Source: Escherichia coli
Lineage (GTDB): Bacteria; Pseudomonadota; Gammaproteobacteria; Enterobacterales; Enterobacteriaceae
Assembly (NCBI RefSeq): GCF_036507355.1
Contig: NZ_AP027877.1
Length of the DNA stretch: 64,000 nt
Strand: one strand, 5' to 3'
The notes beneath the pieces were generated by a model. It was given only the letters and a program-made list of their open reading frames with translations. It made no database searches and was not told the DNA's origin. A program made the position numbers and the translations under genes. Positions 11,487-58,440 of the stretch are shown piece after piece; positions within the stretch are counted from its first letter, which is position 1, and each line of letters starts with the position of its first letter.

Positions 11487-11504
11487 TTTACGTAGGGTAC
11501 GACC

Positions 11505-12993: not shown

Positions 12994-13002
12994 CAGGCAA
13001 GG

Positions 13003-13036: not shown

Positions 13037-13768
13037 TCAGGCTGTTACCAAAGAAGTTGCAACCTGGCGCTCATCAGAAATAATGTGCGTTACCTCATCC
13101 AGATGCCCGATGCGGGCTTCCCCTGAACGATTAAATTTACTTTTATCAATCAATAACAACGATTGCGCGGCACGTTTTAATAGCATCGATTTGTAATCAG
13201 CGTTGATAGCATTGGAGTCCCACAGTGCGCCGCTGCTATCGATCCCTTCACAAGAAAAAATAAACAGATCGATTTCCAGCGATTTAAGTTGGGAAATCAG
13301 CGAGGGATTGACGTAACAGCCATATTTGCGCTCAAGTGTGCCGCCGGAACTGATCAGTTGAATGCGTTCGCGTTTACCGAGTTCATGGCAAATCGGATGG
13401 CTATTGGTGAAGACCTGAATGTTGATGTCAGGCAACTGGCGTGCCAGATACCAGCAGGTTGAACTGGCGTCTAAGGCTATCACCATCCCTTCTTCAATCC
13501 ATGCGAGCGCTTCGCGCGCGATATCTGCTTTATGCGCATAATGGCTTTTCAGCCGGATGTGAAAGGGATCGCCACTGTCTTGATTTTGACGGTGGATATT
13601 TTTAGCGCGCCCATGATTGCGCAGAATTTTACCCTGCGTCTGTAATTCATTGAGATCGCGACGAATGGTTTCTTTACTGACCTTTAGCTGTTCAGAGAGA
13701 GCTTCCGTGGTCAGGCTGGTATGGTTCAGCAGCAGGTCGACTATCGCTTGCTGGCGTGCCGCTTTCAT
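13037..13768 (-). CDS. fucR: DeoR-family L-fucose operon activator FucR
   Basis: 243-aa ORF from ATG (rc 13766-13768); DeoR HTH plus sugar-phosphate-binding domain. Confidence 0.9.
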   Translation of the reverse strand: MKAARQQAIVDLLLNHTSLTTEALSEQLKVSKETIRRDLNELQTQGKILRNHGRAKNIHRQNQDSGDPFHIRLKSHYAHKADIAREALAWIEEGMVIALDASSTCWYLARQLPDINIQVFTNSHPICHELGKRERIQLISSGGTLERKYGCYVNPSLISQLKSLEIDLFIFSCEGIDSSGALWDSNAINADYKSMLLKRAAQSLLLIDKSKFNRSGEARIGHLDEVTHIISDERQVATSLVTA

Positions 13769-15776: not shown

Positions 15777-17552
15777 TTAACGCTTGTACAACGGACCGTA
15801 GTTCTGGCAAGCGCGGTAATCCTGGCCTTCAATATCCATGCCGTGCGCAGCCCAGGCAGAAGGACGATACACTTTGGTCTCTTCAACGTTGTGCATACAT
15901 ACCGGGATACGCAGCATGGAGGCGAGAGTGATAAAGTCTGCGCCAACGTGGCCGATGGTCAGAACCCCATGGTTAGCGCCCCAGTTCTCCATTACCGAAT
16001 ACACATCCGTAAACGGCCCTTTACCGGTGAGGCGCGGTGCAAACCAGGTGGTTGGCCAGGTTGAGTTGGTGCGTTTGTTGAGGATGTCATGCACATCCTT
16101 CGGCAATTCCACGCTCCAGCCTTCCGCGATTTGCAGTACCGGTCCCAGGCCTTTGATGATGTTGACACGAGTCATGGTGAACGGGACGCCGCCTTCGGTA
16201 AGGAAGCGGGAAGAGTAACCGCCGCCACGGAAGTATTCGTGGATCGCCGGGCACCATTCGGTAGCGGCGAGGCAAGCGTCAGCCTCTTGCTGAGAGATTT
16301 CCCAGTGTGGCTTCATCGTCGGGTTACCTTCGCTGTCGCGTTGTTTACAGGAACCGTCCAGCGCAGCAGAACCTGAGTTGATCAAATGGATGATGCCGTG
16401 TTCTGCCAGTCCATCGAGTTTATGCCCCGTTACACGCTCAATTGCTTCTGGTGACCAGTAGGTACGCACATCGGCAAATACCTGAGCGGTGCCGGTGAGC
16501 TGGTGACCCATTAGCATTGCCACGCCGTTAAGACTGTCGTTTTCGGTCGCCACGACAAAGGGTTCGCGCACGCCATTCCAGTCAAATGAACTGTTAAGGA
16601 TCGCTTCGGCGGTGTCGCCATTGGGATATTGATCGGTCCAGTGGCGTTGCCCCTGGAAGCCCGCAGCGATAGCGTTGTAGCCAAGTGATTCTTCCACGCG
16701 ACCAATATCGGCCAGTTTGCTGTTGCCTTGCATCATGTCGCGGATACACATCGCCATCAGTAAACTTTCGCGCAGAACTGCGCGGTTTTGCTCGGCATTG
16801 CGTTGATACTGTTTGTTATTTTCATCTTCGCCATAGCGGAAGTTTTTATCAGCCCAGGCCAGCGCCATTTCCAGTTCGGCTTCGTCGTAAATCTTCTGAT
16901 CGATACGGCGACGAAGTTCGGTCATATCCACCGCCTGGACTTTCATTCCCAGCCAGGATTCAAAGAAGTTGTGATCAACAATAGATCCGGCGATACCCAT
17001 CGAAACGCCGCCCAGCGACAGATAGCTTTTACCTTTCATGCTGGCGACGGCCAAACCGGCGCGGGCAAAGCGCAGCAGTTTTTCTTCAACATCGGCAGGA
17101 ATCGATGTGTCATCGGCATCCTGAACGTCATGACCGTAAATGGAGAATGCCGGGATGCCTTTCTGGCTGTGAGCTGCCAGAGCCGCTGCCAGGTAAACAG
17201 CGCCGGGACGTTCAGTGCCGTTAAAGCCCCAAATGGCTTTCGGGCGGGTTGGATCCATGTCGATGGTTTCACTGCCATAGCACCAGCAAGGCGTTACCGT
17301 AATGGTGAGGCCTACATTCTGGCTGCTGAATTTTTCTTCGCAAGCAGCGGCTTCAGCCATACCCGCGATACAGGTATCGGAAATGACACACTCGACGGCA
17401 GCTCCGCAGGCATGGCGCAGTTTCTCGGTCAGCAGTGTGGCCGTGGCTTTCGCCATATTCATTGTTTGTTCTTCAAGCGACTCACGAACACCCATGCGAC
17501 GACCGTCAATAACCGGGCGGATACCAATTTTCGGTAACGTATTAATTTTCAT
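15777..17552 (-). CDS. fucI: L-fucose isomerase
   Basis: 591-aa FucI-family ORF; N-terminus [14 protein letters not shown]. Confidence 0.9.
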
Positions 17553-17634
17553 CAGGATTCCTCATCTCGCTTTATTGGCGCTCTGCTAAGGCGGAGAAAG
17601 GAAACCACCGAAGCAGTAGTATTGGTCATTATTT

Positions 17635-17650
17635 GCTAACTCGAGTTAGC
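17635..17650. promoter_or_regulatory. Perfect 16-bp palindrome GCTAACTCGAGTTAGC (candidate operator), copy 1
   Basis: Exact self-complementary 16-mer centred on CG in the fucI / ABC-transporter divergent intergenic region. Confidence 0.5.
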
Positions 17651-17694
17651 TTAGGTTCGTAGGCTTTTTATGCACAACTTTTTTGTTGTTGAAA

Positions 17695-17710
17695 TGTGAG
17701 GGGCTTCACG
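17695..17710. promoter_or_regulatory. CRP-like site TGTGA-N6-TCACG
   Basis: TGTGAggggctTCACG, 9 of 10 matches to the CRP core consensus, lying between the two palindromes. Confidence 0.4.
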
Positions 17711-17873
17711 AGAAGTGGTTAAAATACGATCTCTGTCAAATTATTATTTAGCGGGACAAAAATAAATTTTACGTATAATCATATGTTTATTAGATTTTAA
17801 TGGTTATGCATCACAGTTTTAACTCAAATGATTTGGCTAATTTGTATACCTAAAATAGCTTTAAAAGGCGATC

Positions 17874-17889
17874 GCTAACTCGAGTTAGC
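17874..17889. promoter_or_regulatory. Perfect 16-bp palindrome GCTAACTCGAGTTAGC (candidate operator), copy 2
   Basis: Identical to the copy at 17635-17650; centre-to-centre spacing 239 bp. Confidence 0.5.
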
Positions 17890-18021
17890 AAAATGCGAAG
17901 AATAGATTGATGCGATGAATATTTATTCAAAGGTTATTCGTATCACAGTGGAGATGGCTTTAGTAGCGACGTTTATGCCGTACTTCACATTTTCAGTTTC
18001 TGATTATTGAGGAAAGCTGCA

Positions 18022-19521
18022 ATGTCCGAAACATTTTTGCAAATGAAGCATATCACCAAACGCTTTCCTGGAGTGTTGGCGCTTAATGACGTGCAATTTT
18101 CCCTACGCCGGGGCGAGGTTCATGCATTATTAGGTGAAAATGGTGCAGGAAAATCTACCTTAATGAAAATTTTGTCGGGGGTTTATCAACCTGATGAAGG
18201 CGAAATAATTTTTGAAGATAAACCAGTCTCATTTTCTGATCCGTTAAGTGCGCAAAACGTAGGTATTACTATTATTCACCAGGAATTTAATTTATTTCCC
18301 GAGCTTACAGTAGAGGAAAATATTTTTATCGGCAGGGAGTTTTGTAAAAAAAATCGCTGGCGTCTGGATGAGAAACAGCAACGCCAGGCGACGATCGAAA
18401 TTTTGCAAAAATTAAATTTGGCGATCAAACCAGATACTCTGGTTGCCGACCTTACGGTAGCTCAACAGCAGATGGTTGAAATTGCCAAGGCCATTTCGGT
18501 TAACGCCAGGATTCTCATTATGGATGAACCTACTGCGGCGTTAACAGAAACTGAAATTGAAAGCTTATTTCGCGTCACCCGCTTATTGAAAGAGCAGGGG
18601 ACCGGCATTGTGTATATATCCCACCGTCTGGAAGAGTTGGCGCTAATTGCCGACCGCGCGACTGTAATGCGTGATGGTCAGTACATCAGTACGGTGGATT
18701 ATGAGTGCGTAAAAATCAGCGATCTGATTGCCATGATGGTTGGTCGCGATTTAGGGAATATCTATCCCCGCCGCGAGGCCATACAGCAGCGGATGCCGGT
18801 TCTGGAGGTCAACGGACTGACGCGCAAAGGCGTACTCAACGATATTAATTTTACGCTTTATCGTGGCGAGATCCTCGGCTTTGCCGGACTGATGGGGGCA
18901 GGTCGTACTGAACTTGCGCGTGCGATTTTTGGTGCGGACTCCATTGACAGCGGAACGCTAAAGTTAAATGGTAAGGAAACCGTTATTAAAGATATTTCGG
19001 ATGCTATTCAGCAGGGAATTAGTTACCTGACGGAAGACCGAAAAAAAGAAGGGTTGGCACTGAATTTATCTGTTGAACGAAATATTATGTTAGGAAATTA
19101 CCCTGAGTATTCCGATCGTTTTGGGAATGTCGATTCGCGTCGTTGCCAACAAACCAGTGAGGAACAGGTAAAAGCGTTAAGGATTAAAACGCCAAATCTT
19201 GAACAGGCTGCATTAAATCTAAGTGGAGGAAATCAGCAGAAAATTATAATTGCACGTTGGGTGTGTAAAGATACTGATATTTTAATCTTCGATGAACCCA
19301 CTCGCGGCATTGATGTTGGCGCCAAACTGGAAATCTATGAGTTAATGAATCGCCTGGTGGCAAAAGGGAAATCAATCATCATGATCTCCTCTGAATTGCC
19401 GGAGGTGTTAGGAATGTGCGACCGTATTTTAGTGATGCGCAGTGGTCGAATTACTGGCGAACTTAGCGCAAATGAAGCGACACAAGAAAAAATCATGCAA
19501 TACGCGACGTTAGAGGATTAA
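18022..19521 (+). CDS. Sugar ABC transporter ATP-binding protein, two fused ABC domains (CUT2 family, RbsA/XylG-like)
   Basis: 499-aa product from ATG 18022 (GAGGA RBS); Walker A GENGAGKST, second-domain signature LSGGNQQK and degenerate second P-loop GLMGAGRTE; about 42% GC. Confidence 0.85.
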   Translation: MSETFLQMKHITKRFPGVLALNDVQFSLRRGEVHALLGENGAGKSTLMKILSGVYQPDEGEIIFEDKPVSFSDPLSAQNVGITIIHQEFNLFPELTVEENIFIGREFCKKNRWRLDEKQQRQATIEILQKLNLAIKPDTLVADLTVAQQQMVEIAKAISVNARILIMDEPTAALTETEIESLFRVTRLLKEQGTGIVYISHRLEELALIADRATVMRDGQYISTVDYECVKISDLIAMMVGRDLGNIYPRREAIQQRMPVLEVNGLTRKGVLNDINFTLYRGEILGFAGLMGAGRTELARAIFGADSIDSGTLKLNGKETVIKDISDAIQQGISYLTEDRKKEGLALNLSVERNIMLGNYPEYSDRFGNVDSRRCQQTSEEQVKALRIKTPNLEQAALNLSGGNQQKIIIARWVCKDTDILIFDEPTRGIDVGAKLEIYELMNRLVAKGKSIIMISSELPEVLGMCDRILVMRSGRITGELSANEATQEKIMQYATLED

Positions 19522-19524
19522 ATT

Positions 19525-20508
19525 ATGACTATCTCTGTAACCTCTCCAGACAGCAATAATAAGAAAATAAAGATAAATAAAGAACTTTTGATGCGCCTTG
19601 CGCCTCTTTTTAGCTTAATTATATTAGCGCTGTTTTTTAGTTTCAGCTCTCCCTTTTTCTTTAATACCGAAAATATCATGACGATTGCTCTGCAAACGTC
19701 GGTTATCGGCATTATGGCCATTGGGGTAACTTTCGTCATTATTACCGCGGGCATCGATCTTTCATTGGGTTCCGTGGTGGCTTTTTCTGGTGTCGCCGTG
19801 GGGATTTGCGCCACACTGGGCCTGCCGCTGCCAGTGTGTATTATTGCCGGTGTTTTAGCCGGTGGAATGTGCGGCTATGTGAATGGTTTGTTGGTCACTA
19901 AAATGACTATTCCACCGTTTATCGCTACCTTGGGCCTGATGATGTCCGTCAGAGGTATCAATATGGTGATGACCGACGGGCGCGCCATCTATTTTGCCGA
20001 TTACCCGATGTTCAAAACGCTCGCTCAGGGACGCTTGTTTGATGTGCTACCTTATCCTGTTTTCTACCTGGTCATTGTGGCGCTTGTCGGCGCTTACATC
20101 CTGAAGAAAACGGTTATTGGTCGCTATGTCTATGCCGTAGGCAGTAATGAAGTTGCTGCTCATCTTTCTGGTATTAAAGTTCAGCGCGTGAAAATTTTCG
20201 TCTATGCCTTCTGTGGTTTATTAACCGGGATTGCGGGTGTCATTCTCGCTTCTCGTCTCAACTCCGGACAACCGACGGTAGGTGTGGGTTATGAGCTGGA
20301 AGCTATTGCTGCGGTAGTGATCGGCGGAACCAGCTTAATGGGCGGTATTGGCACTATTGGCGGCACAATCATTGGCGCTTTCATTATGAGTGTACTGAAA
20401 AATGGCCTCAATTTAATGGGGGTCTCTCAGTTCTGGCAAATGGTCGCGATGGGCGTAGTTGTGGTCGCTGCCGTTTACCTCGATACATTACGCAAAAAGA
20501 TTCGTTGA
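19525..20508 (+). CDS. Sugar ABC transporter permease (RbsC/XylH-like)
   Basis: 327-aa polytopic membrane ORF starting 4 nt after the ATPase stop with GAGGA RBS. Confidence 0.85.
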   Translation: MTISVTSPDSNNKKIKINKELLMRLAPLFSLIILALFFSFSSPFFFNTENIMTIALQTSVIGIMAIGVTFVIITAGIDLSLGSVVAFSGVAVGICATLGLPLPVCIIAGVLAGGMCGYVNGLLVTKMTIPPFIATLGLMMSVRGINMVMTDGRAIYFADYPMFKTLAQGRLFDVLPYPVFYLVIVALVGAYILKKTVIGRYVYAVGSNEVAAHLSGIKVQRVKIFVYAFCGLLTGIAGVILASRLNSGQPTVGVGYELEAIAAVVIGGTSLMGGIGTIGGTIIGAFIMSVLKNGLNLMGVSQFWQMVAMGVVVVAAVYLDTLRKKIR

Positions 20509-20581
20509 CTTAGGCTCCCTGTTTTATCGGGAAACAACTGCCCTGACGTTAAGGGTGATTCACTCAGAACGGAGTACAACA

Positions 20582-21532
20582 ATGAAAACCAGGCATTTTA
20601 TCTATGCGTTATCTCTGCTGGCTTGCGTAAGTTCCAGCGCACTGGCGAAGGATTTAAATCTTCCGGTTGTTAGTAAAGGTTTCCAACATGAATTCTGGCA
20701 AACCGTAAAAATGGGGACTGAAGCTGCGGCTAAAGAGTTGGGGGATAAAACCAGCTATGTTGGCCCGGCTGATGAAACGCAAATAGCCGAGCAAATTCAG
20801 TTAGTCGAAAATGCGATGGCGCAGAAACCGAATGGCTTGCTTCTGGCAGCCCTCGACGCGAATGCGCTCGCCCCACTGGTAGAAACGGCAAATTCACGCG
20901 GTATCAAAGTGGTGACCTTTGATTCAGGCATCAATTCAGACATTCCGGTGAGTTTTGTCGCCACCAATAACCGTAAAGCAGGTGCTCAGGCAGCTGATGC
21001 CTTAGCCGCGCAGGTAAATAATAAAGGGAAAGTAGGGATTATCGCGCACGTTGCAGGAACATCTTCCGCTATTGAACGCTCGGAAGGCTTCATGGAGCGT
21101 ATGAAAGAAAAATATCCTGACATTAAAGTTTTACCCGTTCAGTACAGCGATGGTGACCCGCAAAAAGCGATGGATAAAACTATCGATATGATTCAGGCCA
21201 ATCCCGATCTTGCTGGGATCTATGGCACCAATGAAGGTTCAACGCTCGGGGTGGCGAATGCCATTGATAGCCAGAATCTGAAAGGTAAGGTGAAGGTCAT
21301 TGGTTTTGATAGTACGGAAGCGATTATTAACTTCCTGAAGAACGGCGTCATTCAGGGCTTTGTTGTTCAGGATGCATACCAGATTGGCTATCAAGGGATC
21401 AAAACGTTGAACGCGGCCCTTTCGGGACAAGCCGTTGAAAAAGAGATCGATATTCCCGTGAAATTTGTTAATGCCGAGAATATTAACACGCCAGAAATCG
21501 ACAAACTCCTGCACCCATTCGGTAAGAAATAA
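20582..21532 (+). CDS. Periplasmic sugar-binding protein (RbsB-like)
   Basis: 316-aa product from ATG 20582 (GGAG RBS); Sec signal MKTRHFIYALSLLACVSSSALA; the six-frame ORF starting at 20459 is an over-extension. Confidence 0.85.
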   Translation: MKTRHFIYALSLLACVSSSALAKDLNLPVVSKGFQHEFWQTVKMGTEAAAKELGDKTSYVGPADETQIAEQIQLVENAMAQKPNGLLLAALDANALAPLVETANSRGIKVVTFDSGINSDIPVSFVATNNRKAGAQAADALAAQVNNKGKVGIIAHVAGTSSAIERSEGFMERMKEKYPDIKVLPVQYSDGDPQKAMDKTIDMIQANPDLAGIYGTNEGSTLGVANAIDSQNLKGKVKVIGFDSTEAIINFLKNGVIQGFVVQDAYQIGYQGIKTLNAALSGQAVEKEIDIPVKFVNAENINTPEIDKLLHPFGKK

Positions 21533-21539
21533 AAAAATT

Positions 21540-21559
21540 GGGGATGAATTTTCATCCCC
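21540..21559. other. Perfect 8-bp-stem hairpin between the binding-protein gene and the kinase gene
   Basis: GGGGATGA-attt-TCATCCCC preceded by an A7 run; no T-tract on the plus side, so it is not a canonical plus-strand terminator. Confidence 0.4.
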
Positions 21560-21585
21560 GTTATCTCCAGCGTCAGGGAGGCTTT

Positions 21586-23166
21586 ATGCACAACGGTTAT
21601 TTTCTCGGTGTCGATGTCGGATCGGCCAGTGTCAGGGCAGGCGTTTACAGTGCCAGTGGCCACAGGCTGGCATTCGCTACTGCGCCCGTCTCCCAGTTTC
21701 GCCCTGGCGGCGAGCGTGTTGAACAGTCTTCGGCGGAGATCTGGCAACAAGTTTGTAAAACGGTGAAAGAGGCGACAGCTTTGGCAGGCATCCCTGGTTC
21801 CGCAATTCGCTCGCTAGGTTTTGACGCTACTTGCTCGCTGGTTGTTCTTGATGAACAAGGCCAGGGTTTAGCTGTTTCGCCCGGTGGATCTGCGAATCAC
21901 GACATTATTATGTGGATGGATCATCGTGCAACTGTCGAGACGGCGCAGATTAACGCGACGAAGGATCCTGCATTGCGCTACGTTGGCGGCGAAGTGAGCG
22001 TCGAGATGGAGTTACCAAAGTTACGTTGGTTGAAGACGCATCTACCGCAAACCTGGCAGGCCGCTCATCGCTTTTTCGATCTGGCGGATTTTCTGGTCTG
22101 GAAAGCAACAGGGCGAGACGTCGCGGGATTATGCACGCTAACGTGTAAATGGAATTATCTGGCTCATGAGCAACGCTTTAGCCATAGCTTACTGGAATCG
22201 ATAGACCTGATCGATATGCTTGAAAGAATTCCTGCCGACATTCTTCCGCCTGGCGCTGCCGTGGGAACATTAACCGCCACAGCTGCTGAAGAGTTAGGAT
22301 TAACGACTAATGTTATCGTGGCCAGTGGCTTGATTGATGCCCATGCCGGTGGCGTGGCGCTGGCTGGCGCGCACCCATCAGGAACGCTGGCATTGATAAG
22401 CGGAACGTCGAACTGCCATATGCTGTGTAGTGAAAAAGAGATATTCACCCCTGGCGTCTGGGGGCCATACTGGTCGGCCATGTTGCCAAATTACTGGCTA
22501 ACCGAAGGCGGGCAAAGCGCCGCAGGGGCGCTGGTGGAGTGGACGCTTCAGGAGTCAGGGGCAAGCGCAAATCTTTTTCACAAGGCGCAGCAACGCGGAT
22601 GTCATCCGATTCAACTGATTAATGAATGGGTAGCCGCCCTGGAAGCTAACGAGTCAGAACCCACACGAAATTTACATGTGCTTGCCGATCATCACGGCAA
22701 CCGTTCGCCACGAGCGCGGCCCGATGCCAGAGGCAGTGTTTATGGCTTAACACTGGAGCGTGGTGAAAGTCAGCTCGCGCGACTTTATCTTGCGACTTTA
22801 CAGGCAATAGCCTTTGGCACCAGACATATTATTGAAACTCTCAGGGAAAATGGGCATACCATTACCCGATTAACATTATGTGGTGGTGCAACGCACAACC
22901 CTTTATGGCTACGCGAATATGCAGACGTGACAGGCTGCGATATCCACCTGATGCAAGAAGAAGATGCCGTTACATTGGGTGCAGCAATTAGCGGCGCTGT
23001 TGCCAGCGGAGCATGGGGGGATTTTACATCTGCGTGTAAAGCAATGGTTGAAGCCGGAGAGGTTATTCAGGTAAATCCACAACGCCGTGAATTTTTAGAG
23101 CGTAAATACCGGGTTTACCTGACGCTTTGGGAGCAACAACAGGCAGTTAACCAACTGATGCAATAA
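21586..23166 (+). CDS. FGGY-family carbohydrate kinase, pentulose (ribulokinase-like) type
   Basis: 526-aa product from ATG 21586 (AGGGAGG RBS); FGGY N- and C-terminal domains (GVDVGSASVR, IIMWMDHRA); distinct from fucK. Confidence 0.8.
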   Translation: MHNGYFLGVDVGSASVRAGVYSASGHRLAFATAPVSQFRPGGERVEQSSAEIWQQVCKTVKEATALAGIPGSAIRSLGFDATCSLVVLDEQGQGLAVSPGGSANHDIIMWMDHRATVETAQINATKDPALRYVGGEVSVEMELPKLRWLKTHLPQTWQAAHRFFDLADFLVWKATGRDVAGLCTLTCKWNYLAHEQRFSHSLLESIDLIDMLERIPADILPPGAAVGTLTATAAEELGLTTNVIVASGLIDAHAGGVALAGAHPSGTLALISGTSNCHMLCSEKEIFTPGVWGPYWSAMLPNYWLTEGGQSAAGALVEWTLQESGASANLFHKAQQRGCHPIQLINEWVAALEANESEPTRNLHVLADHHGNRSPRARPDARGSVYGLTLERGESQLARLYLATLQAIAFGTRHIIETLRENGHTITRLTLCGGATHNPLWLREYADVTGCDIHLMQEEDAVTLGAAISGAVASGAWGDFTSACKAMVEAGEVIQVNPQRREFLERKYRVYLTLWEQQQAVNQLMQ

Positions 23167-23230
23167 GACAAAAGTTGAAAATACTTTTATGATTGTGATT
23201 TGACGTCTGGATGTTAACTGGGAAATACCT

Positions 23231-24229
23231 ATGGCTAAAACAGTAGAGCAGATAGCCAGCGACCTGAATTTATCGGTTACGACCGTGCGACTGGTGCTAA
23301 ATGGAAAAGCGGAACAATATCGAATCAGCGTCAAAACCCAAACGCGTATCAATGAATATGTTGAACACTATGGTTATATCATTAATCATTCCGCTCGCAG
23401 CCTTAAACTTAACAAAACTGATACATTAGGGTTGATTGTTCCCAACATATCCAACGTCTTTTTTGCTACGCTGGCAGAAAAACTTGAACAACGCTGCCGA
23501 CGTTCCGGATATCAACTTACGATCAGTTGTACTTATGATGATGTCGACTATGAAAATAAATTGACGAAAGCATTTATCGCACGAAATGTAGATGGTCTTT
23601 TTATTGTTCCTTCGACGCTGGAGAATCAGCAGCATCATTTACGCAAAATTCGTAAACCAATGGTTTTACTCGACCGTGATTTTAAATATACCGATAATGC
23701 ATTGGTAGAGAGTAATAATATTTCTGGCGGAGAAAAGTTGACACAAAATATTCTTGAGGCCGGGCAGACTCCAGTATGGTTTTTGCTGGGGGATGCCGGT
23801 TTGCCGAGTATCAGCGATCGTCTGACAGGTTATTTGAATGCGTTGGAAAAAAAAGGGATTACCCATCGCGATTGGGTGCGAGAAGGCCCGGTAAATACTC
23901 CGGAAGGCGGCTATGTCATTATGGAAAAACTCATTGAAGAGCAGGGATGTCCGCAGGCATTTATCGCCTCGTCTTTACCTGTGCTTGAAGGCGCTGTCCG
24001 CGCGATTCGCGACCGTCTTGGCGCTGTACCGCCAGAAATCAATATTGGCACTTTCGATGAACATCCCATGCTGGGATTTCTCGCCAACAATGTCTGGTCA
24101 ATGCAGCAGGATGAAAATGCCTGGGCAGAAAAAGCGTTCGAAATGATGTTAAGCGCGATCGAAGAAAGACCAGTCAAAAAAACAGTCAAAGTAGAAATGA
24201 AATTAATTAAGCGCATAAGAAAAAAATAA
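23231..24229 (+). CDS. LacI-family transcriptional regulator
   Basis: 332-aa ORF with N-terminal LacI HTH (VEQIASDLNLSVTTVRLVLNG) and periplasmic-binding-like effector domain; about 43% GC. Confidence 0.85.
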   Translation: MAKTVEQIASDLNLSVTTVRLVLNGKAEQYRISVKTQTRINEYVEHYGYIINHSARSLKLNKTDTLGLIVPNISNVFFATLAEKLEQRCRRSGYQLTISCTYDDVDYENKLTKAFIARNVDGLFIVPSTLENQQHHLRKIRKPMVLLDRDFKYTDNALVESNNISGGEKLTQNILEAGQTPVWFLLGDAGLPSISDRLTGYLNALEKKGITHRDWVREGPVNTPEGGYVIMEKLIEEQGCPQAFIASSLPVLEGAVRAIRDRLGAVPPEINIGTFDEHPMLGFLANNVWSMQQDENAWAEKAFEMMLSAIEERPVKKTVKVEMKLIKRIRKK

Positions 24230-24362
24230 TAATCGCCAAAAGATAATCAGGCTATTGAACAATGATATTCAGTGGCCACCCCTTACTAAAAATAACCCCG
24301 TCTTCATTTGCGGTGCTGTTTTACGCAACAAGGCGAGCTGGAACTGTATCTGGAGAATAGAG

Positions 24363-25010
24363 ATGGAAAGAACACGTTTATCCCGTGAAATAATTGAAAC
24401 CTGTCTGGAAATGACGCGCCTTGGGTTAAATCAGGGGACTGCGGGGAATGTCAGCACACGTTTTGAAAACGGCATGTTGATTACTCCAAGCGGTATTCCT
24501 TATGAAAGAATGACGGAGAATATGATTGTCTATGTTGATGGCAACGGCAAATACGAAGAAGGTAAGATTCCTTCCAGCGAATGGCGTTTCCATATGGCGG
24601 CCTATCAAAGCAGACCGGATGCCAACGCGGTTGTTCACAATCATGCCGTTCATTGCACAGCAGTTTCCATTCTTAACCGACCGATCCCCGCTATTCACTA
24701 CATGATTGCGGCGGCTGGCGGTAATTCTATTCCTTGCGCGCCTTATGCGACCTTTGGAACACGCGAACTTTCTGAACATGTTGCGCTGGCTCTCAAAAAT
24801 CGTAAGGCAACTTTGTTACAACATCATGGGCTTATCGCTTGTGAGGTGAATCTGGAAAAAGCGTTATGGCTGGCGCATGAAGTTGAAGTGCTGGCGCAAC
24901 TTTACCTGACGACCCTGGCGATTACGGACCCGGTGCCAGTGCTGAGCGATGAAGAAATTGCCGTAGTGCTGGAGAAATTCAAAACCTATGGGTTACGGAT
25001 TGAAGAGTAA
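24363..25010 (+). CDS. fucA: L-fuculose-1-phosphate aldolase (class II); N-terminal third diverged from the K-12 sequence
   Basis: 215-aa product from ATG 24363 (GGAGA RBS); residues from about 70 onward match K-12 FucA as I recall it, the first ~70 differ at about 18 positions. Confidence 0.85.
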   Translation: MERTRLSREIIETCLEMTRLGLNQGTAGNVSTRFENGMLITPSGIPYERMTENMIVYVDGNGKYEEGKIPSSEWRFHMAAYQSRPDANAVVHNHAVHCTAVSILNRPIPAIHYMIAAAGGNSIPCAPYATFGTRELSEHVALALKNRKATLLQHHGLIACEVNLEKALWLAHEVEVLAQLYLTTLAITDPVPVLSDEEIAVVLEKFKTYGLRIEE

Positions 25011-35066: not shown

Positions 35067-35516
35067 ATGGCGGAAATTGGTATTTTTGTCGGCACCATGT
35101 ACGGAAATTCGCTGTTAGTGGCGGAAGAAGCAGAAGCAATTCTGACCGCACAGGGCCACAAAGCAACGGTATTTGAAGATCCTGAATTAAGCGACTGGCT
35201 GCCCTATCAGGATAAGTATGTTCTGGTGGTTACGTCCACGACCGGGCAGGGCGACCTTCCTGATAGCATTGTGCCGCTCTTTCAGGGAATCAAAGATAGT
35301 CTGGGCTTCCAGCCGAATCTGCGTTATGGCGTGATTGCGCTCGGCGACAGCAGTTATGTAAATTTCTGCAATGGCGGCAAACAGTTCGATGCCTTGTTGC
35401 AGGAACAGAGCGCTCAGCGGGTTGGCGAAATGCTGTTGATTGACGCCAGTGAGAACCCGGAACCGGAAACGGAATCAAATCCGTGGGTCGAACAGTGGGG
35501 CACGCTGTTGTCCTGA
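35067..35516 (+). CDS. yqcA: Flavodoxin-like protein YqcA
   Basis: 149-aa flavodoxin fold. Confidence 0.85.
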
Positions 35517-35569
35517 TATGTTCAGCGAGCGGTAAATGTCGTTTTAGCGGTGCTGAATCGAATCTTTTT

Positions 35570-35624
35570 AGGCAAATGCCAGTAAAAACTGCTTCATAGC
35601 GCGGATTTTTACTGGCGTTTGCCT
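35570..35624. promoter_or_regulatory. Long imperfect inverted repeat upstream of gudP
   Basis: 19-nt arms AGGCAAATGCCAGTAAAAA / TTTTTACTGGCGTTTGCCT with one mismatch and a 17-nt loop; no adjacent T-tract. Confidence 0.35.
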
Positions 35625-35950
35625 GGAGTCAAGCGATCCATTTCATACTCTTCTTTATTTCTTCGTTTTAACCCTTCCTTTCTTGTTCTTGTTTTCATTT
35701 CCGTGAAGTGGATTCCACCGTCCAGGGCTAATGCCAAAATCGGGCCTCATTGAACGCATTAATGTTGTGTTGTTGCACGGTGAGCCGCTATGGCGCGCTT
35801 TTTATACTGCTATTGCCAGATATAAACACGCGCCGTATTCGGCGAACGACCTATAAAAACGGCAAAAAACACCCTACGTCACCTCTGATTTCCTGGCGAT
35901 GTCGCAGTCCAGAGTGAGCGTGGCTAACGCGAATTTTCAGGAGTGCAACA

Positions 35951-37303
35951 ATGAGTTCTTTAAGTCAGGCTGCGAGCCGTGTGGAAAAACGCACGAATGC
36001 TCGTTACTGGATAGTGGTGATGTTGTTTATCGTCACATCCTTCAACTACGGCGACCGCGCTACGCTTTCTATTGCCGGTTCGGAAATGGCCAAAGATATC
36101 GGCCTTGATCCCGTGGGAATGGGCTATGTGTTCTCTGCCTTCTCATGGGCTTATGTTATCGGGCAGATCCCTGGTGGTTGGTTGCTGGATCGTTTTGGTT
36201 CAAAACGCGTCTACTTCTGGTCGATCTTTATCTGGTCGATGTTTACCTTGCTGCAAGGCTTCGTCGATATCTTTAGTGGATTCGGCATTATCGTTGCCCT
36301 GTTTACTCTGCGCTTCCTGGTCGGGCTTGCTGAAGCGCCATCTTTCCCCGGCAACAGTCGCATTGTTGCGGCCTGGTTTCCGGCGCAGGAAAGGGGAACG
36401 GCGGTGTCGATTTTTAACTCCGCTCAATACTTCGCAACGGTGATCTTCGCGCCGATTATGGGCTGGCTGACGCATGAAGTGGGCTGGTCACACGTCTTCT
36501 TCTTTATGGGCGGTCTGGGCATTGTCATCAGCTTTATCTGGTTGAAAGTCATCCACGAGCCAAATCAATATCCGGGGGTAAATCAGAAAGAGCTGGAGTA
36601 CATCGCCGCGGGTGGCGCGCTGATCAATATGGATCAGTAAAACACCAAAGTTAAAGTGCCGTTCAGCGTGAAGTGGGGGCAGATCAAACAACTGCTCGGG
36701 TCACGGATGATGATCGGCGTTTATATTGGTCAGTACTGTATCAACGCCCTGACTTACTTTTTCATTACCTGGTTTCCGGTTTATCTGGTGCAGGTGCGTG
36801 GGATGTCGATTCTGAAAGCGGGCTTTGTGGCTTCCGTTCCGGCGGTTTGCGGTTTTATCGGCGGTGTGCTGGGTGGGATTATTTCCGACTGGCTGATGCG
36901 CCGCACGGGATCGCTGAACATTGCGCGTAAAACACCGATCGTAATGGGCATGTTGCTGTCGATGGTGATGGTGTTCTGCAACTACGTCAACGTTGAGTGG
37001 ATGATCATCGGCTTTATGGCGCTGGCCTTCTTCGGTAAGGGCATTGGGGCGCTGGGTTGGGCAGTAATGGCAGATACCGCACCAAAAGAGATCAGCGGTC
37101 TTTCCGGTGGCCTGTTCAACATGTTCGGTAACATTTCTGGCATCGTCACGCCAATCGCAATTGGTTATATCGTTGGCACGACTGGCTCCTTTAATGGGGC
37201 GCTGATTTATGTTGGTGTTCATGCCTTAATCGCGGTACTGAGCTACCTGGTGCTGGTGGGCGATATCAAGCGTATCGAGCTGAAACCTGTCGCGGGGCAA
37301 TAA
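35951..37303 (+). pseudogene. gudP: Glucarate/galactarate MFS transporter GudP interrupted by an in-frame TAA at 36638-36640
   Basis: 229-aa ORF (35951-36640) and 215-aa ORF (36656-37303) are in the same frame and together form one 12-TM MFS protein; sequence reads ...INMDQ-TAA-NTKVKVPFSVKWGQ... Confidence 0.85.
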
Positions 37304-37304
37304 G

Positions 37305-38645
37305 ATGACGACACAATCCAGTCCTGTTATTACTGATATGAAAGTCATTCCGGTCGCCGGGCATGACAGCATGTTGCTCAATATTGGTGGTGCGCATAAC
37401 GCATACTTCACCCGCAATATCGTGGTACTCACCGATAACGCCGGGCATACCGGCATTGGTGAAGCACCGGGCGGAGAGGTGATTTATCAAACACTGGTCG
37501 AAGCTATTCCGATGGTGCTGGGCCAGGAAGTTGCGCGCCTGAATAAAGTGGTTCAGCAGGTGCATAAAGGTAATCAGGCCGCCGATTTTGATACCTTCGG
37601 CAAAGGTGCCTGGACTTTTGAATTGCGCGTTAATGCCGTAGCGGCGCTGGAAGCCGCCTTGCTTGACCTGTTAGGTAAGGCGCTGAATGTTCCGGTCTGC
37701 GAACTGTTAGGGCCAGGCAAGCAACGCGAGGCTATTACCGTCCTCGGTTATCTGTTTTATATCGGTGATCGGACCAAAACCGATCTTCCTTATCTGGAAA
37801 ATACGCCGGGCAACCATGAGTGGTATCAGTTGCGGCATCAGAAAGCGATGAACAGCGAAGCCGTTGTGCGTCTGGCGGAAGCCTCACAGGATCGCTACGG
37901 CTTTAAAGATTTTAAACTTAAGGGCGGCGTGTTACCTGGCGAGCAAGAAATCGACACTGTTCGTGCATTGAAGAAACGCTTCCCGGATGCGCGGATTACC
38001 GTTGATCCCAACGGTGCATGGCTGCTTGATGAAGCCATTTCTCTGTGCAAAGGGCTGAATGATGTTCTCACCTATGCCGAAGATCCATGTGGCGCAGAAC
38101 AGGGCTTCTCCGGACGTGAAGTGATGGCGGAGTTTCGGCGGGCGACCGGCTTGCCCGTTGCGACTAACATGATCGCCACCAACTGGCGCGAAATGGGTTA
38201 TGCGGTGATGCTCAATGCGGTAGATATTCCACTTGCCGATCCGCACTTCTGGACGCTTTCCGGTGCAGTCCGCGTGGCGCAGCTTTGCGACGACTGGGGG
38301 CTGACCTGGGGCTGCCATTCTAATAACCATTTCGATATCTCTCTGGCGATGTTTACCCATGTGGGCGCGGCGGCACCGGGTAATCCTACCGCTATCGATA
38401 CCCACTGGATTTGGCAGGAGGGCGATTGTCGCCTGACCCAAAATTCGCTGGAGATTAAAAACGGAAAAATTGCCGTTCCTGATGCGCCCGGTCTGGGCGT
38501 GGAACTGGACTGGGAACAGGTACAAAAGGCACATGAGGCCTATAAACGTCTGCCTGGCGGTGCGCGTAACGACGCAGGCCCGATGCAGTACCTGATCCCC
38601 GGCTGGACCTTTGACCGTAAACGTCCCGTTTTCGGCCGTCATTGA
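37305..38645 (+). CDS. gudX: Glucarate dehydratase-related protein (enolase superfamily)
   Basis: 446-aa ORF, paralogous to the downstream gudD. Confidence 0.9.
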
Positions 38646-38665
38646 TTCTGAAAAAGGACATAAAT

Positions 38666-40006
38666 ATGAGCTCTCAATTTACGACGCCTGTTGTTACTGA
38701 AATGCAGGTCATCCCGGTGGCGGGCCATGACAGTATGCTGATGAATCTGAGTGGTGCACACGCACCGTTCTTCACGCGTAATATTGTGATTATCAAAGAT
38801 AATTCTGGTCACACTGGCGTAGGGGAAATTCCCGGCGGCGAGAAAATCCGTAAAACGCTGGAAGATGCGATTCCGCTGGTAGTGGGTAAAACGCTGGGTG
38901 AATACAAAAACGTTCTGACGCTGGTGCGTAATACTTTTGCCGATCGTGATGCTGGTGGGCGCGGTTTGCAGACATTTGATTTGCGTACCACTATTCATGT
39001 AGTTACCGGGATAGAAGCGGCAATGCTGGATCTGCTGGGGCAGCATCTGGGGGTTAACGTGGCATCCCTGCTGGGCGATGGTCAACAGCGTAGCGAAGTC
39101 GAAATGCTCGGTTATCTGTTCTTCGTCGGTAATCGCAAAGCCACACCTCTGCCGTATCAAAGCCAGCCGGATGACTCATGCGACTGGTATCGCCTGCGTC
39201 ATGAAGAAGCGATGACGCCGGATGCGGTGGTGCGCCTGGCGGAAGCGGCGTATGAAAAATATGGCTTCAACGATTTCAAACTGAAAGGCGGTGTACTGGC
39301 CGGGGAAGAAGAGGCCGAGTCTATTGTGGCACTGGCGCAACGCTTCCCGCAGGCGCGTATTACGCTCGATCCTAACGGTGCCTGGTCGCTGAACGAAGCG
39401 ATTAAAATTGGTAAATACCTGAAAGGTTCGCTGGCTTATGCAGAAGATCCGTGTGGTGCGGAGCAAGGTTTCTCCGGGCGTGAAGTGATGGCAGAGTTCC
39501 GTCGCGCGACTGGCCTGCCGACTGCAACCAATATGATCGCCACCGACTGGCGGCAGATGGGCCATACGCTCTCGTTACAATCCGTTGATATCCCGCTGGC
39601 GGATCCGCATTTCTGGACGATGCAAGGTTCGGTACGTGTGGCGCAAATGTGCCATGAATTTGGCCTGACCTGGGGTTCGCACTCTAACAACCACTTCGAT
39701 ATTTCCCTGGCGATGTTTACCCATGTTGCCGCCGCTGCACCGGGTAAAATTACTGCTATTGATACGCACTGGATTTGGCAGGAAGGCAATCAGCGCCTGA
39801 CCAAAGAACCGTTTGAGATCAAAGGCGGGCTGGTACAGGTGCCAGAAAAACCGGGGCTGGGTGTAGAAATCGATATGGATCAAGTGATGAAAGCCCATGA
39901 ACTGTATCAGAAACACGGGCTTGGCGCGCGTGACGATGCGATGGGAATGCAGTATCTGATTCCTGGCTGGACGTTCGATAACAAGCGCCCGTGCATGGTG
40001 CGTTAA
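38666..40006 (+). CDS. gudD: D-glucarate dehydratase
   Basis: 446-aa product from ATG 38666; enolase-superfamily motifs. Confidence 0.9.
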
Positions 40007-40015
40007 GACAGAAAA

Positions 40016-40046
40016 CCAAAACCGGCTCTGTCAGGAGCCGGTTTGA
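40016..40046. terminator. Bidirectional hairpin terminator between convergent gudD and barA
   Basis: AACCGGCTC-tgtcagg-GAGCCGGTT with T-rich tract on the minus-strand side. Confidence 0.5.
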
Positions 40047-40068
40047 GACTGATGCCAAACACAAAATT

Positions 40069-40166
40069 GCCTGATGCGCTACGCTTATCAGGCCTAAATG
40101 CTTTTTAATTTATTGAATTTAATTGGTTTTGTAGGCCGGATAAGGCGTTAACGCCGCATCCGGCAT
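40069..40166. repeat. Two REP-like palindromes (BIME)
   Basis: GCCTGATGCGCTACGCTTATCAGGCC and GTAGGCCGGATAAGGCGTTAACGCCGCATCCGGCA. Confidence 0.6.
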
Positions 40167-40238
40167 AAACACAGGCACTTTGTCACCAATCTGAAACCAG
40201 CGTCATAAAAAGCCGATTGCTACTCGACAAGACATCCA

Positions 40239-42995
40239 TTACCCGAGAATTTTGCTGGCTTCGCGCGCGACATTATCCATCTCGTCCAACAGTTCCAGCA
40301 GCTCCGGCTCCAAATCTTCTTCTTTAGTACCGCTACGTAACTGTTGTTCGATCAGTTGGCAGAGATTCTTCATACGCGGCACACCGCTATAGCCGCAACT
40401 GCCATGCAGTTTATGAATCAAATCAACCAGGCCTTCCGGGTTTTCTCCAACCAGCTGTTCCTCAACTTTGTTGCGAACTTCAGGCAGGAAATCGAGTAAC
40501 ATTTGCAGCATATCGCGCGCCAGATCGGTTTTTCCTGCTGCCTGGCGTAGTGCCAGTTGCCAGTCGAGGGTCGCATTCGGGTTCACCACAATTTCGTTGA
40601 CTTCGGGCGTCACGACGCGAGAGGAAATACCGCTGCCAGGCTTGTAGCGCAACAGCAAATTATGCAATCGCTCTTCTTCAATCGGTTTCGCCAGATAATC
40701 ACTCATCCCTGCGCCAAGCAGCTTCTCTTTTTGCCCGGCCATTGCATGCGCCGTTACCGCGATAACCGGCGTTTGTTGCTGATGGGGGAGTTGGTGGATG
40801 AGTTCGCAGGCCCGAATGCCATCCATGTCCGGCATTTGAATATCCATTAAGATCAAATCGAACGGCATCTGTTTCGCCCGTTCAACCGCCTGATGCCCGC
40901 TATCGCAAAGCTCCACATGTTGCACCATATCTTCCAGCAATGCGCCGATAAGTTTCAGGTTAGCGGGGTTGTCATCAACCGCCATGACTGTCATTGCCAG
41001 CTTACTTTCATCGGTTACAGGCAAAAGCGTGTTTTGTTTGTGATGACAAAATTCCGTCAGGGCAGGCAACAGGCGCGTAGGTGTTAATGGTTTCAGCAGA
41101 CACGCGCCGATACCATCTTGCTTGAGTTTTTCAGCATTGACTTGTGCATGGCAAGGAAGTGCCAGCATCAGGAAATCGGTCATCGATACCGCTTTCGCTA
41201 ATCGCTCATGTTGCATTGTTAGCGGCTCGCGGAAGGTCACCGCGATGCCTAACAACATCATGTCGTAATGCGCGGGAGGCAGCGCGGAGAACGTTGGGCT
41301 ATAAACCACTTCCAGCGGCGTTTCACTTAAAATATCCAGCGTGCATTGCGCTGCTGCGGAGTTTGGTTCGACATAGGCCAGGCGTTTACCGGCGAGGCAC
41401 TGGGTGGATGGCCCTTCAATAATAATGTTCGGGTTCAGATCGAGATTAATGTGGAACCAGAAAGTTGAACCGCGATTCGGCTGGCTATGGAACGAAATAT
41501 CGCCGCCCATTTCATTAACCAGTTTTTGTGTAATCACCAGCCCCAGCCCGGTGCCACCATGACGGCGGGAAATACTGGCATCAGCCTGTCGGAAGGCCTG
41601 GAATAAGCGCGATTGATCGCGTTCAGGAATACCAATGCCGGTATCCCGAATCTGCACTTCAATCTGCACTTTGGTATTACTCAGCGCACGTTTTTCTACC
41701 AGAATATCAATGTTGCCATTCTCGGTGAATTTAATTGCATTCCCCACCAGGTTAGTGATGATTTGCTGTAATCGCAGTGGGTCGCCGATCACGTTATCAG
41801 GCACGTCGCTTTTAATATTGAGCGTCAGTTCCAACCCTTTATCGTGAGAAGAATGTGCCAGCAGAGTAACGACTTCATCCAGCGTGCTGCGTAGTGGGAA
41901 TGGAATACTTTCCAGAATCAGCTTACCTGCTTCCAGTTTCGAGAAGTCGAGAACATCATTAATAATTGCCAGCAAATTATTTGCCGAACGTTCAATCGTA
42001 TTCAGGTGATCGCGCTGCGTTGGTGTTAATTCTGTTTTCAGCGTCAGGCGGGTAAAGCCAATAACACCATTCAGTGGTGTACGCAGCTCGTGTGACATAT
42101 TTGCCAGAAACTCGGATTTAATACGCGCCGCTTCCTGGGCGCGCTTTTTCGCCAGATCCAACTCAACGTTCTGAATTTCCATCTGCTCCAGCGTTTCACG
42201 CAGATCGGACGTCGCCTGGTCGATATTGTGCTGCATCTCTTCGTGATAAGCAGCCAGCGACATTGCCATCGAGTTGATACCGTTTTTCAGCATATCCAGC
42301 TCGCCGAGCATAAATCCTTCCACCCGGCTGTCGAGTTGCCCGCGACGGATGCGGTCGACGGTATTCACCATGTTGCGAATCGGACCGGTTACATCGCGCA
42401 TTAAGCGCCAGCCAAAAATAAGCGCAATACCGATACAAAACAGCATCATCACGCTGGAAATAAAGATCTCTTTATATTGCTGCAAGCGAACCGATTTAAG
42501 ATCCAGCTCAAGCGCAATATATCCCAACATATTTTGACTATTTTTGGCATCGCTACTGGGCGATTCGTCGGGGGAGTAACTCTCAGAAATAATCGGCGTG
42601 CGGAGGATCATAATATCGCCGTCACGAGTGACAGTGAGCTGGCGAGGAAACGGCACGTTGCTGCCGAGCTGCATTGATGAGGGATCAAGATGAAAATTGG
42701 AGGTGACAAAGAGTCGGTTATTTTCATCATAAACCGAAATCGCGCGAACAATATCGGAATGGCGACGATGCAGTACGCTTATTAACTGACCGATAGATTC
42801 GCGATTTTGCAGGCTCATGCCATATTCAGTAGAAACTGCAAGCGGCTCAATAATGCTGGCACCGGCATCTTCCAGTTGACGCTGCAAGTCGTTATAGCGA
42901 TGCACGACGAAAAAGATACTCAGCAATAAACCAATAAGGACGGTCGGTGCCAGGATCAGAATCATCATGCGTGCGCGCAGGCTGTAGTTGGTCAT
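40239..42995 (-). CDS. barA: Hybrid sensor histidine kinase BarA
   Basis: 918-aa ORF with TM, HAMP, HisKA/HATPase, receiver and HPt domains. Confidence 0.9.
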
Positions 42996-51465: not shown

Positions 51466-51828
51466 TCACATTTTGAGTTCAGTAAGCAGAGCGATAACAT
51501 TAATAAATGTTATTCCCACCAGGATAAGTATCCGAACAATTTTTCTGCTATTCCTTACATTGCTGACAAAATCATTATGAGAAATATTGGATGAATATTT
51601 TCGTTGATGGACTTTATAATCCCAAAGAAGATCATTTGCCTCAGGTATTGGGTTAATCAGACTGTAGATGCAAAAGTATACAAACGTATCTAAAGCAAGC
51701 AGTGATGTTATCAGTTGAAATAATTCATCGCCCTGGAAGGCTTTATTAAGCCAAATCATTCCAGCAGCACCGAATAAGCCAAATACAAATTTACTTAATC
51801 GCGGATGATTCGCTAAAATCTTACTCAT
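51466..51828 (-). CDS. Small hypothetical membrane protein (120 aa, 2-3 predicted TM helices), last gene of the LemA/TPM operon
   Basis: ORF with AGGGAAGG RBS 36 nt downstream of the TPM gene stop; very AT-rich (about 35% GC). Confidence 0.5.
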   Translation of the reverse strand: MSKILANHPRLSKFVFGLFGAAGMIWLNKAFQGDELFQLITSLLALDTFVYFCIYSLINPIPEANDLLWDYKVHQRKYSSNISHNDFVSNVRNSRKIVRILILVGITFINVIALLTELKM

Positions 51829-51863
51829 ATTTTCTTACCTTCCCTGTAATCTGTTTTTAAGTC

Positions 51864-52766
51864 TTACCATCTTCCTGACGCGCCGCCACCGCCGGATGAA
51901 CCGCCGCCACCGCTGAAATTGTCATTGTCGAAAGAGGATGAAGAGGAAGAAGACGATGACGAATGCCAGGAGGCCGAGTTGCTTCTTTCGTAGCGTGACG
52001 GTCGGTTTGCACTACGCATTGAATCACGCACCTTTCTGCCGAAAGGTGTGAAAGCGATAGCTACGACCAGGAATGGAGTGGCGAAACATAATAATGTGGC
52101 AAGAATTCCCCAGCTCCCGCTATATCCAGCGATGGGAAGTACAAAGGCCAGTATTATGGCAGCAAAGCAAATCACTCCCAGCGTTTTGATATATCCTCTG
52201 GCAGAAATAAACGTCAGTACTATCGCCCAGACTAACAGAGCCCACCAACCGCTAAAGGGTAAAGGATGATCGGGCGATGTATTATTGACTAAATCATTTC
52301 CTGATAGTCGGGTTTCAATATCACCAATACCTTGTTGCAAGCCGACAGCAAGGTCGCCCTTTTTAAACGCTGGAATAATACTGTTGCGTATAATTTGCCC
52401 GGACTGCGCATCCGTCAGAATACCCTCAAGTCCGTAGCCAATTTCAATATGTACTGTATGATCTTGCTAGGCAACTACCAGTAAAATACCGTCATCAAGA
52501 TTCTTATGACCGGGCTGCCAACGCTCGAATACCCGCGTTGCGTACTGCTCGATGGTTTCGTCGCCTGTTGTATCAACCACTAACACGACCAACTGTGCGT
52601 GTTTTTTTTGTGTCAGGGCTTTAATCTGGTTGGTCAGGGTGTTTACTTCGCTGTTTGTTAATGTGCCGGTTAAGTCATTCACATACTTGGGTGATTCAGG
52701 TACTGGAATTTGTGTGGCAAACACAGATGAACAGAAGAAAGCCGTAAGGAAGATAAAATTTCGCAT
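51864..52766 (-). pseudogene. ygcG: TPM-domain (YgcG-like) protein interrupted by an in-frame TAG at 52467-52469
   Basis: N-terminal ORF (signal peptide MRNFIFLTAFFCSSVFA plus start of TPM domain) and C-terminal ORF (TM segments plus Gly/Ser-rich tail) are in the same frame, separated only by the amber codon; sequence reads ...LLVVA-TAG-QDHTVHIEIGYGLEG... Confidence 0.75.
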
Positions 52767-52779
52767 AGAACTTCCCCGC

Positions 52780-53400
52780 TTAATGAGCATTAGCATTCTG
52801 GCTAAAATCTATTGTTGGGGCTTTACTTACTGCGGCGACATCATCCGGCAAATAATTTTTCTTTGGTGTGTAATCCATGACCTTTGCGGTTAATACAGCG
52901 GGGAATTTGCGGATAGTGACATTATATTGTTCAATGGCTTTAATATATCTTCCTCGCGCAACGGCAATTCTATTCTCACTTCCTTCGAGCTGTACCATTA
53001 AGTTTTGATAGAGCTCTTGAGCCTTTAACTCAGGGTAACGCTCACTAATTATCGTTAACTGACCGAGAGTGCGAGTCACCTGCGCCTGGGCCTGTTGCCA
53101 GGCTTGTAATTTTTGTGCATCTCCGGGAGCTTGCTGAAGATCGCTGCTGGCGCGATTAGCCTGGCTACGAGCCAATGTTACGGCTTCCAAAACGTCTTTT
53201 TCATGGTTGGAATAACCTTTAATACTGGCGACAAGATTAGGAATAAGATCGGCGCGACGTTGATATTGATTTAATACCTCAGACCAGGAGGCGTTAACCT
53301 GCTCATCATAGGTTTGAATATCGTTATATCCACAGCCTGATAAATTGAAAATAAATATAATTAAGATGAATATCCTGAGCATGTTTAAATCCTTTTTCAT
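52780..53400 (-). CDS. LemA-family protein (probable lipoprotein)
   Basis: 206-aa LemA-family ORF with N-terminal signal and lipobox LSGC; stop lies 13 nt upstream of the TPM gene start. Confidence 0.8.
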   Translation of the reverse strand: MKKDLNMLRIFILIIFIFNLSGCGYNDIQTYDEQVNASWSEVLNQYQRRADLIPNLVASIKGYSNHEKDVLEAVTLARSQANRASSDLQQAPGDAQKLQAWQQAQAQVTRTLGQLTIISERYPELKAQELYQNLMVQLEGSENRIAVARGRYIKAIEQYNVTIRKFPAVLTAKVMDYTPKKNYLPDDVAAVSKAPTIDFSQNANAH

Positions 53401-58197: not shown

Positions 58198-58375
58198 ATC
58201 GTATTCCCATTTGTAATAGACAAAAAAAAGAGAAAAGTAAGCCGCCCTTTCAGGTGGATTACTTTTCTCAGGTCTCTAGTAATTGAAATAATAAATAACA
58301 TGGAAAGCAGAGGTGTTGTGTGAGAGTAATCACGCTTCTGCTTTTTAAAACTATTTGATAATGCGAATATCACAC

Positions 58376-58391
58376 TGTGATTACGATCACA
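58376..58391. promoter_or_regulatory. Perfect CRP core site TGTGA-N6-TCACA
   Basis: TGTGAttacgaTCACA in the divergent yqcE / ygcU' intergenic region, about 57 bp upstream of the ygcU' ATG. Confidence 0.5.
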
Positions 58392-58440
58392 TTAGCAGTT
58401 ATGTCCTTATGCTAAAAATTATCTCCAGTTACCAGAGATA

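Follow-up and report, generated by a model that had tools for sequence, protein, structure and literature searches.

In the Escherichia coli strain analyzed here, the glucarate/galactarate transporter gene gudP is interrupted by an in-frame TAA codon. The stop goes back to an inherited C-to-T nonsense mutation at position 36638 in a small lineage, where it has very probably been fixed and has left GudP without function, as judged by comparisons at the level of the DNA. All positions refer to the window, i.e., the whole 64-kb stretch of DNA that was analyzed.

The gudP locus and the site of truncation

The gudP locus spans positions 35951-37303 on the plus strand and would encode a product of 450 amino acids. 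The reading frame is set by the ATG at 35951. In this frame, positions 36626-36646 read ATG GAT CAG TAA AAC ACC AAA, and the premature ochre codon (36638..36640, plus strand) occupies codon 230. The 5' fragment (35951..36640, plus strand) contains codons 1-229 followed by the stop, and its translation in the list of open reading frames is 229 amino acids long with the C-terminal end ...ALINMDQ. The 3' remnant (36641..37303, plus strand) contains codons 231-450 in the same frame; the longest open reading frame within it starts at a GTG codon and encodes 215 amino acids (36656-37303). The coordinates and the peptide context given in the initial annotation agree throughout with the sequence and the list of open reading frames. 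A search with the NCBIfam profile TIGR00893, which has 399 positions, assigned profile positions 1-196 to the 5' frame (E 6e-81) and positions 197-399 to the 3' frame (E 4e-76). Since the two frames match the two halves of a single profile, they derive from one broken gene and not from two genes.

The initial naming of the interrupted gene as gudP is supported by this profile match, by the high identity to annotated alleles and by the conserved neighborhood. Annotated gudP alleles of other strains share 99.1-99.6% nucleotide identity with the window gene and are equal to it in length and frame. The order yqcA-gudP-gudX-gudD-barA is the same in the window, K-12, TB06052, SCU-316 and NCTC10444. 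The gene therefore has both the sequence of gudP and its position upstream of gudX-gudD, and both six-helix domains match an ACS-type MFS profile. What is missing is an uninterrupted frame of 450 codons, because of the TAA at codon 230. Comparison with gudP in related strains, which had been suggested as a check, gave a clear picture: in TB06052, 120899, SCU-316 and NCTC10444 the gene is annotated, intact and collinear with the window copy, with 0 indels. Codon 230 is CAA (Gln230) in the alleles of TB06052 and 120899, where the window reads TAA. The base-by-base comparison with these intact alleles consequently traces the stop to a single C-to-T change at 36638, which is the cause that had been proposed as the simplest one. 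Besides the stop, the window allele differs from that of TB06052 at five positions, three of them synonymous; the other two are H207Y (36569) and A282V (36795). An in-frame stop thus stands at a sense codon of the orthologues, with no indel or rearrangement, and on these comparisons the window gudP is a genuine nonsense pseudogene of an ACS-family MFS glucarate/galactarate transporter.

In order to locate the break within the protein, we used hydropathy and the alignment with DgoT, the D-galactonate:H+ symporter (PDB 6E9N/6E9O), which is the closest homologue of known structure and shares the 12-TM ACS fold with GudP. DgoT is the product of a different gene and has a different substrate; here it served as a structural ruler only. 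GudP with the glutamine restored aligns with DgoT (6E9N) over residues 14-443 (E 1e-109). Codon 230 lies in a hydrophilic segment between TM6 (residues ~183-203) and TM7 (~251-275). By this mapping, the stop falls in the central cytoplasmic inter-domain loop. The N-terminal product would contain TM1-6 and most of this loop, and the downstream frame would contain TM7-12. This agrees with the earlier description of a truncation after TM6, with the six C-terminal helices encoded by the 215-aa frame. The two amino acid changes that separate the window allele from TB06052 both map to loops. H207Y affects a loop position at which DgoT has a threonine, and A282V lies in the TM7-TM8 loop opposite a glutamate of DgoT. 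Judged by their place in non-conserved loops, both changes would probably be tolerable in a working gene as well.

Inheritance of the TAA allele

GenBank lists identical copies of the 229-aa and 215-aa products as BED21148.1 and BED21149.1, encoded by an E. coli chromosome and annotated as "hypothetical proteins"; these entries can now be annotated as the two halves of a gudP pseudogene. The E. coli record also speaks against a Shigella origin, which the lack of an exact match among complete E. coli genomes had suggested. The 215-aa product was also found on five other contigs from different samples, each with a 229-aa open reading frame immediately upstream. Among the contigs carrying the TAA are GCA_905398585.1, the Logan assembly of SRR17480487 and three similar contigs. 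Two of the TAA contigs were read base by base. Their sequences depart from that of the window by 2 bases in 6,648 and 1 base in 6,430, codon 230 is TAA in both, and both keep the ancestral C at 36569. The exact 229-aa product, in turn, occurs on one contig only. H207Y (C to T at 36569, plus strand) is therefore private to the window strain, and since the other contigs have the TAA together with a C at 36569, it arose in the window strain after the stop. A282V (C to T at 36795, plus strand) is common to the TAA lineage and absent from complete genomes.

A sequencing or assembly error that hides an intact gene has to be considered, given that the stop rests on a single-base difference and that the genome lies outside the RefSeq complete set that was searched. 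However, GCA_905398585.1, the SRR17480487 assembly and the three similar contigs all have this base too, and they stem from other samples and do not share the window's base at 36569; moreover, the substitution is atypical of long-read errors. Because independent assemblies carry the same TAA, we reject the error reading, to which we assign an extremely low probability. Resequencing had been named as the decisive test, with CAA or CAG at this codon speaking against a stop, and the independent assemblies have in effect answered it in favor of the TAA.

Among RefSeq complete E. coli genomes we obtained no exact match for the 81 nt around the stop, and the 81-nt context of A282V had no identical copy among 5,280 matching complete genomes, both being tests that are blind to a genome with the same T plus a further nearby SNP. 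Whole-gene comparison gave the same picture: the best allele among the 5,423 complete genomes with a gudP match reaches 99.6% identity, and this ceiling places the lineage outside the RefSeq complete E. coli set. For the surrounding 24 kb, the top identity to complete genomes is 99.3%. Taken from the sequence records, the TAA is a real, heritable allele of a small and rarely sequenced E. coli lineage.

Selection was examined in 37 genes (40,086 nt), whose substitutions were polarized by using SCU-316 as the sister and K-12 as the outgroup. In the window lineage, 180 changes are synonymous, 24 are non-synonymous and 1 is a nonsense change, versus 164 synonymous and 29 non-synonymous changes in SCU-316, and the share of G:C>A:T changes is 54% versus 43%. 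With N/S values of 25/180 and 29/164 and these G:C>A:T shares, lineage-wide relaxed selection or a mutator history was rejected. Within gudP the ratio of protein-altering to synonymous changes, with the stop included, is 4:4, compared with 21:176 in 31 further genes that have derived changes (Fisher p 0.009), a contrast that carries a bias, since the stop was the reason for choosing the gene. One of the four changes, S10R, is a polymorphism common to TB06052, and when the stop and S10R are left out the excess becomes weak (2 N : 4 S). A moderate excess of amino acid changes in gudP, with the rest of the genome looking normal, is compatible with a fairly recent inactivation and subsequent drift but does not prove it.

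Loss of gudP is not confined to this lineage. Other truncated GudP products on record are a 65-aa protein (ELC97834.1, strain KTE201) found on 69 contigs, a 172-aa protein whose tail is read in the +1 frame due to a frameshift, and a 266-aa protein (EMX75074.1). These records indicate that gudP inactivation recurs, at low frequency. The other alleles represent the same kind of event, i.e., independent inactivation in natural isolates, but they differ from the window allele in position and mechanism, and the latter is a clean nonsense mutation exactly between the two domains. A literature search turned up no published account of a gudP pseudogene.

One may ask whether the loss of gudP, or a damping of gudPXD, was selected as an advantage in the niche of this lineage. 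The independent truncations in other E. coli point in this direction, as do further accessory differences within the same 64 kb, namely a nonsense codon in a ygcG-like gene, a ygcW/ygcU deletion and the replacement of fucP by an ABC cassette (all described below). Yet gudP is nearly universal: an intact annotated copy is present in 5,423 of 5,426 complete E. coli genomes (1,353-bp query), and at least 80% of the query is covered in 5,410 of the 5,426. Other gudP truncations are rare, no parallel mutations were found at the same site, and the fuc cassette is an ordinary polymorphism seen in 383 genomes. Nothing in these data separates selection from drift, and we regard a selected loss as unlikely. 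The lesion is, as far as the comparisons go, an ordinary strain-level gene loss and not a new kind of feature. Its main value lies in annotation and in the prediction of a phenotype, and it touches no open question.

Fate of the fragments, the downstream genes and glucarate use

We propose the following course of events. A spontaneous C-to-T transition at 36638 would have converted Gln230 (CAA) into an ochre stop, and the allele would then have reached fixation in a small natural lineage of E. coli to which the window strain belongs. Translation is expected to end in the central loop and to release the 229-residue N-terminal domain with TM1-6. On its own, this domain would be unable to form the 12-helix transporter, and GudP function would be lost. 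Lacking its own ribosome-binding site, the C-terminal half would be made in traces at most, by restart after termination. Expression of gudX and gudD may fall as well, through lost translational coupling and Rho-dependent polarity over the 663 untranslated nucleotides, an effect of uncertain size. The inactivation was probably fairly recent and has presumably been followed by drift.

The fate of the C-terminal half depends on restart sites behind the stop. The GTG at 36656 is in frame and lies 15 nt past the stop. Its calculated Shine-Dalgarno pairing is -0.4 kcal/mol, and that of the ATG codons at 36707/36710 is -3.2 kcal/mol. The latter offers no advantage over the background within the gene (mean -2.6), and the true starts of gudP, gudX and gudD reach -6.9, -5.0 and -5.3 kcal/mol, respectively. 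As the GTG has no Shine-Dalgarno sequence, little of the C-terminal half is expected. Efficient synthesis is hence not anticipated from these pairing values, and a low-level restart after termination may occur.

These values bear directly on the idea that GudP might still work in two pieces, with restart at GTG 36656 or ATG 36707/36710 and assembly of TM1-6 and TM7-12 in the membrane. Because the stop falls in the central loop, both fragments are complete MFS domains. An in-frame GTG lies just downstream of it, and the C-terminal reading frame is intact with a single amino acid change (A282V, in a loop). Furthermore, the break is at the domain boundary where LacY tolerates splitting. Bibi and Kaback reportedly observed in 1990 that LacY is functional when expressed as N6 and C6 fragments, and as in the window gudP this break lies between TM6 and TM7 and leaves two whole domains. 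For LacY and XylE, a further report, which cites the 1990 result, describes that the split domains are each expressible on their own (PMC7272624). In those experiments, however, each fragment had an engineered start and ribosome-binding site, which the C-terminal piece of gudP lacks. The window gene therefore resembles the split permeases in its TM6/TM7 break, but its C-terminal piece has no separate start that is equipped with a ribosome-binding site. Restart would be inefficient according to the pairing energies, an intact downstream frame is expected of any young pseudogene, and the non-synonymous change H207Y was already acquired after the stop. On this analysis, a working two-piece GudP is very unlikely; if it existed, it would parallel in nature what was engineered with the split LacY.

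Full-length GudP could also be restored if an ochre suppressor tRNA decoded the stop or if ribosomes read through it naturally. We found no positive evidence for this, although a suppressor tRNA could be encoded outside the window. Within the 64 kb, the only tRNA genes are three tRNA-Met(CAT) genes, the equivalents of metZWV, and a suppressor tRNA encoded in the window was rejected on this basis. Both release factors recognize UAA, which leaks the least among the stop codons of E. coli. In addition, the second nonsense codon of the lineage is a TAG, so that one suppressor would not serve both. We consider the chance that enough full-length GudP is made in this way to be minute.

The two genes downstream of gudP are intact, as had been noted initially. 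gudX (37305..38645, plus strand; Shine-Dalgarno pairing as given above) encodes a glucarate dehydratase-related protein and gudD (38666..40006, plus strand) encodes D-glucarate dehydratase. Both consist of 446 codons with 0 internal stops, and both match the glucarate dehydratase profile TIGR03247, with gudD scoring 898.7 bits against a cut-off of 828.7. GudD has 0 amino acid differences to the proteins of SCU-316 and NCTC10444.

The ATG of gudX lies 1 nt past the normal gudP stop codon, from which we infer that the TAA has probably removed some translational coupling. Polarity is more difficult to judge. The 663 nt after the TAA are G-rich (C 0.216, G 0.306) and contain only short patches with C at or above G. 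Since such a stretch is not a typical Rho loading region, strong polarity on gudX and gudD is not predicted. Rho-dependent polarity may nonetheless occur, with uncertain strength on this sequence composition. The initial annotation had spoken of a polar reduction in glucarate uptake. A polar effect is conceivable, but its target would be the enzyme genes gudX and gudD and not uptake, and the G-rich region does not predict it strongly. A consensus scan of 35500-40300 revealed no promoter inside the gud operon, the sole sigma-70 match being on the minus strand upstream of gudP. Terminator-like hairpins in the same scan numbered 7, compared with 5.4 +/- 2.6 in shuffled sequence, and are thus not in excess. 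Neither the promoter nor the hairpin scan helps to gauge polarity.

Two lineage-derived changes were observed in GudX, H299Y (38199) and P381S (38445). His299 is conserved in the paralogue GudD (within the motif QMGHTLSL) and in GudX of other strains, and the exact window GudX protein was found on 6 contigs only. These changes may point to a weakened constraint behind the gudP stop, numbers being too small for a firmer statement. The spacer between gudD and barA (~40030-40100) differs from SCU-316 and NCTC10444 by an indel; it also contains, on the minus strand, a strong terminator-like hairpin (40044-40019).

What the loss of GudP would mean for growth can be estimated from deletion strains. 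A K-12 Keio gudP deletion grew more poorly on D-glucarate and normally on galactarate, and a K-12 garP deletion did not grow on glucarate, leading to the proposal that GarP acts as the main transporter and GudP as a secondary and partly redundant one (bioRxiv 10.64898/2026.05.20.726482). In another study, glucarate fermentation was abolished in the K-12 Keio gudP deletion and restored by gudP in trans, and fermentation of oxidized sugars was only attenuated by a garP deletion (PMC11775122). The initial prediction of a loss of glucarate uptake is therefore sound insofar as a glucarate defect is expected; a total loss disregards GarP, and the published gudP deletions range from impaired to abolished. 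For the strain with the TAA we accordingly expect, by analogy with these deletions, that use of D-glucarate is reduced to absent, depending on GarP, whose gene lies outside the window as do garD, garLRK and cdaR, and on residual gudD expression, and that galactarate use is unaffected. The latter would be retained because GarP overlaps with GudP and because galactarate has its own dehydratase. Use of glucarate and galactarate has been linked to enterobacterial growth in a gut that is inflamed or treated with antibiotics (PMC11775122), and the TAA allele could slightly alter the fitness of the lineage under such conditions.

Other differences in the window

A second private nonsense codon is located in a ygcG-like TPM-domain gene (51864-52796, minus strand) that adjoins lemA. 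Here, codon 110 has changed from TGG to TAG (52467-52469; G to A on the coding strand at 52468), which splits the gene into open reading frames of 99/109 and 158 amino acids. Of the 340 complete E. coli genomes that carry this form of the gene, none has the TAG. The 99-aa N-terminal fragment is on record as BED21161.1 and occurs on 4 contigs, which indicates that this TAG is inherited in the lineage as well. The region behind lemA varies between strains: SCU-316 has three TPM-domain genes (11371-13430 of its stretch) compared with one in the window (51466-52340 region) and in K-12. After the TPM-domain gene of the window follows a 120-aa open reading frame (51466-51828, minus strand) with no obvious counterpart.

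Around positions ~58197-58429, ygcW is missing and ygcU is without its first ~104 codons in comparison with both SCU-316 and K-12. This loss corresponds to a deletion of ~1.3 kb between yqcE and ygcU.

In the fuc region, fucP is absent and a 6.7-kb cassette (17553-24254) lies between fucI (15777-17552) and fucA (24255-25010). It encodes an RbsA-like ABC ATPase (18007-19521), a permease (19525-20508), a periplasmic sugar-binding protein (~20582-21532), an FGGY pentulose kinase (21538-23166; TIGR01315, above cut-off) and a LacI/FruR-type regulator (23231-24229). The cassette is found in 383 of 5,426 complete genomes, the closest copy being that of TB06052 with 99.4% identity. FucA, encoded beside the cassette, is 91.6% identical to the SCU-316 protein. 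The fucI gene of SCU-316 is annotated as frameshifted (9431-11192 of its stretch), whereas fucI of the window is intact with 591 amino acids. As the SCU-316 fucI gene illustrates, isolates often carry lesions in single genes of sugar pathways.
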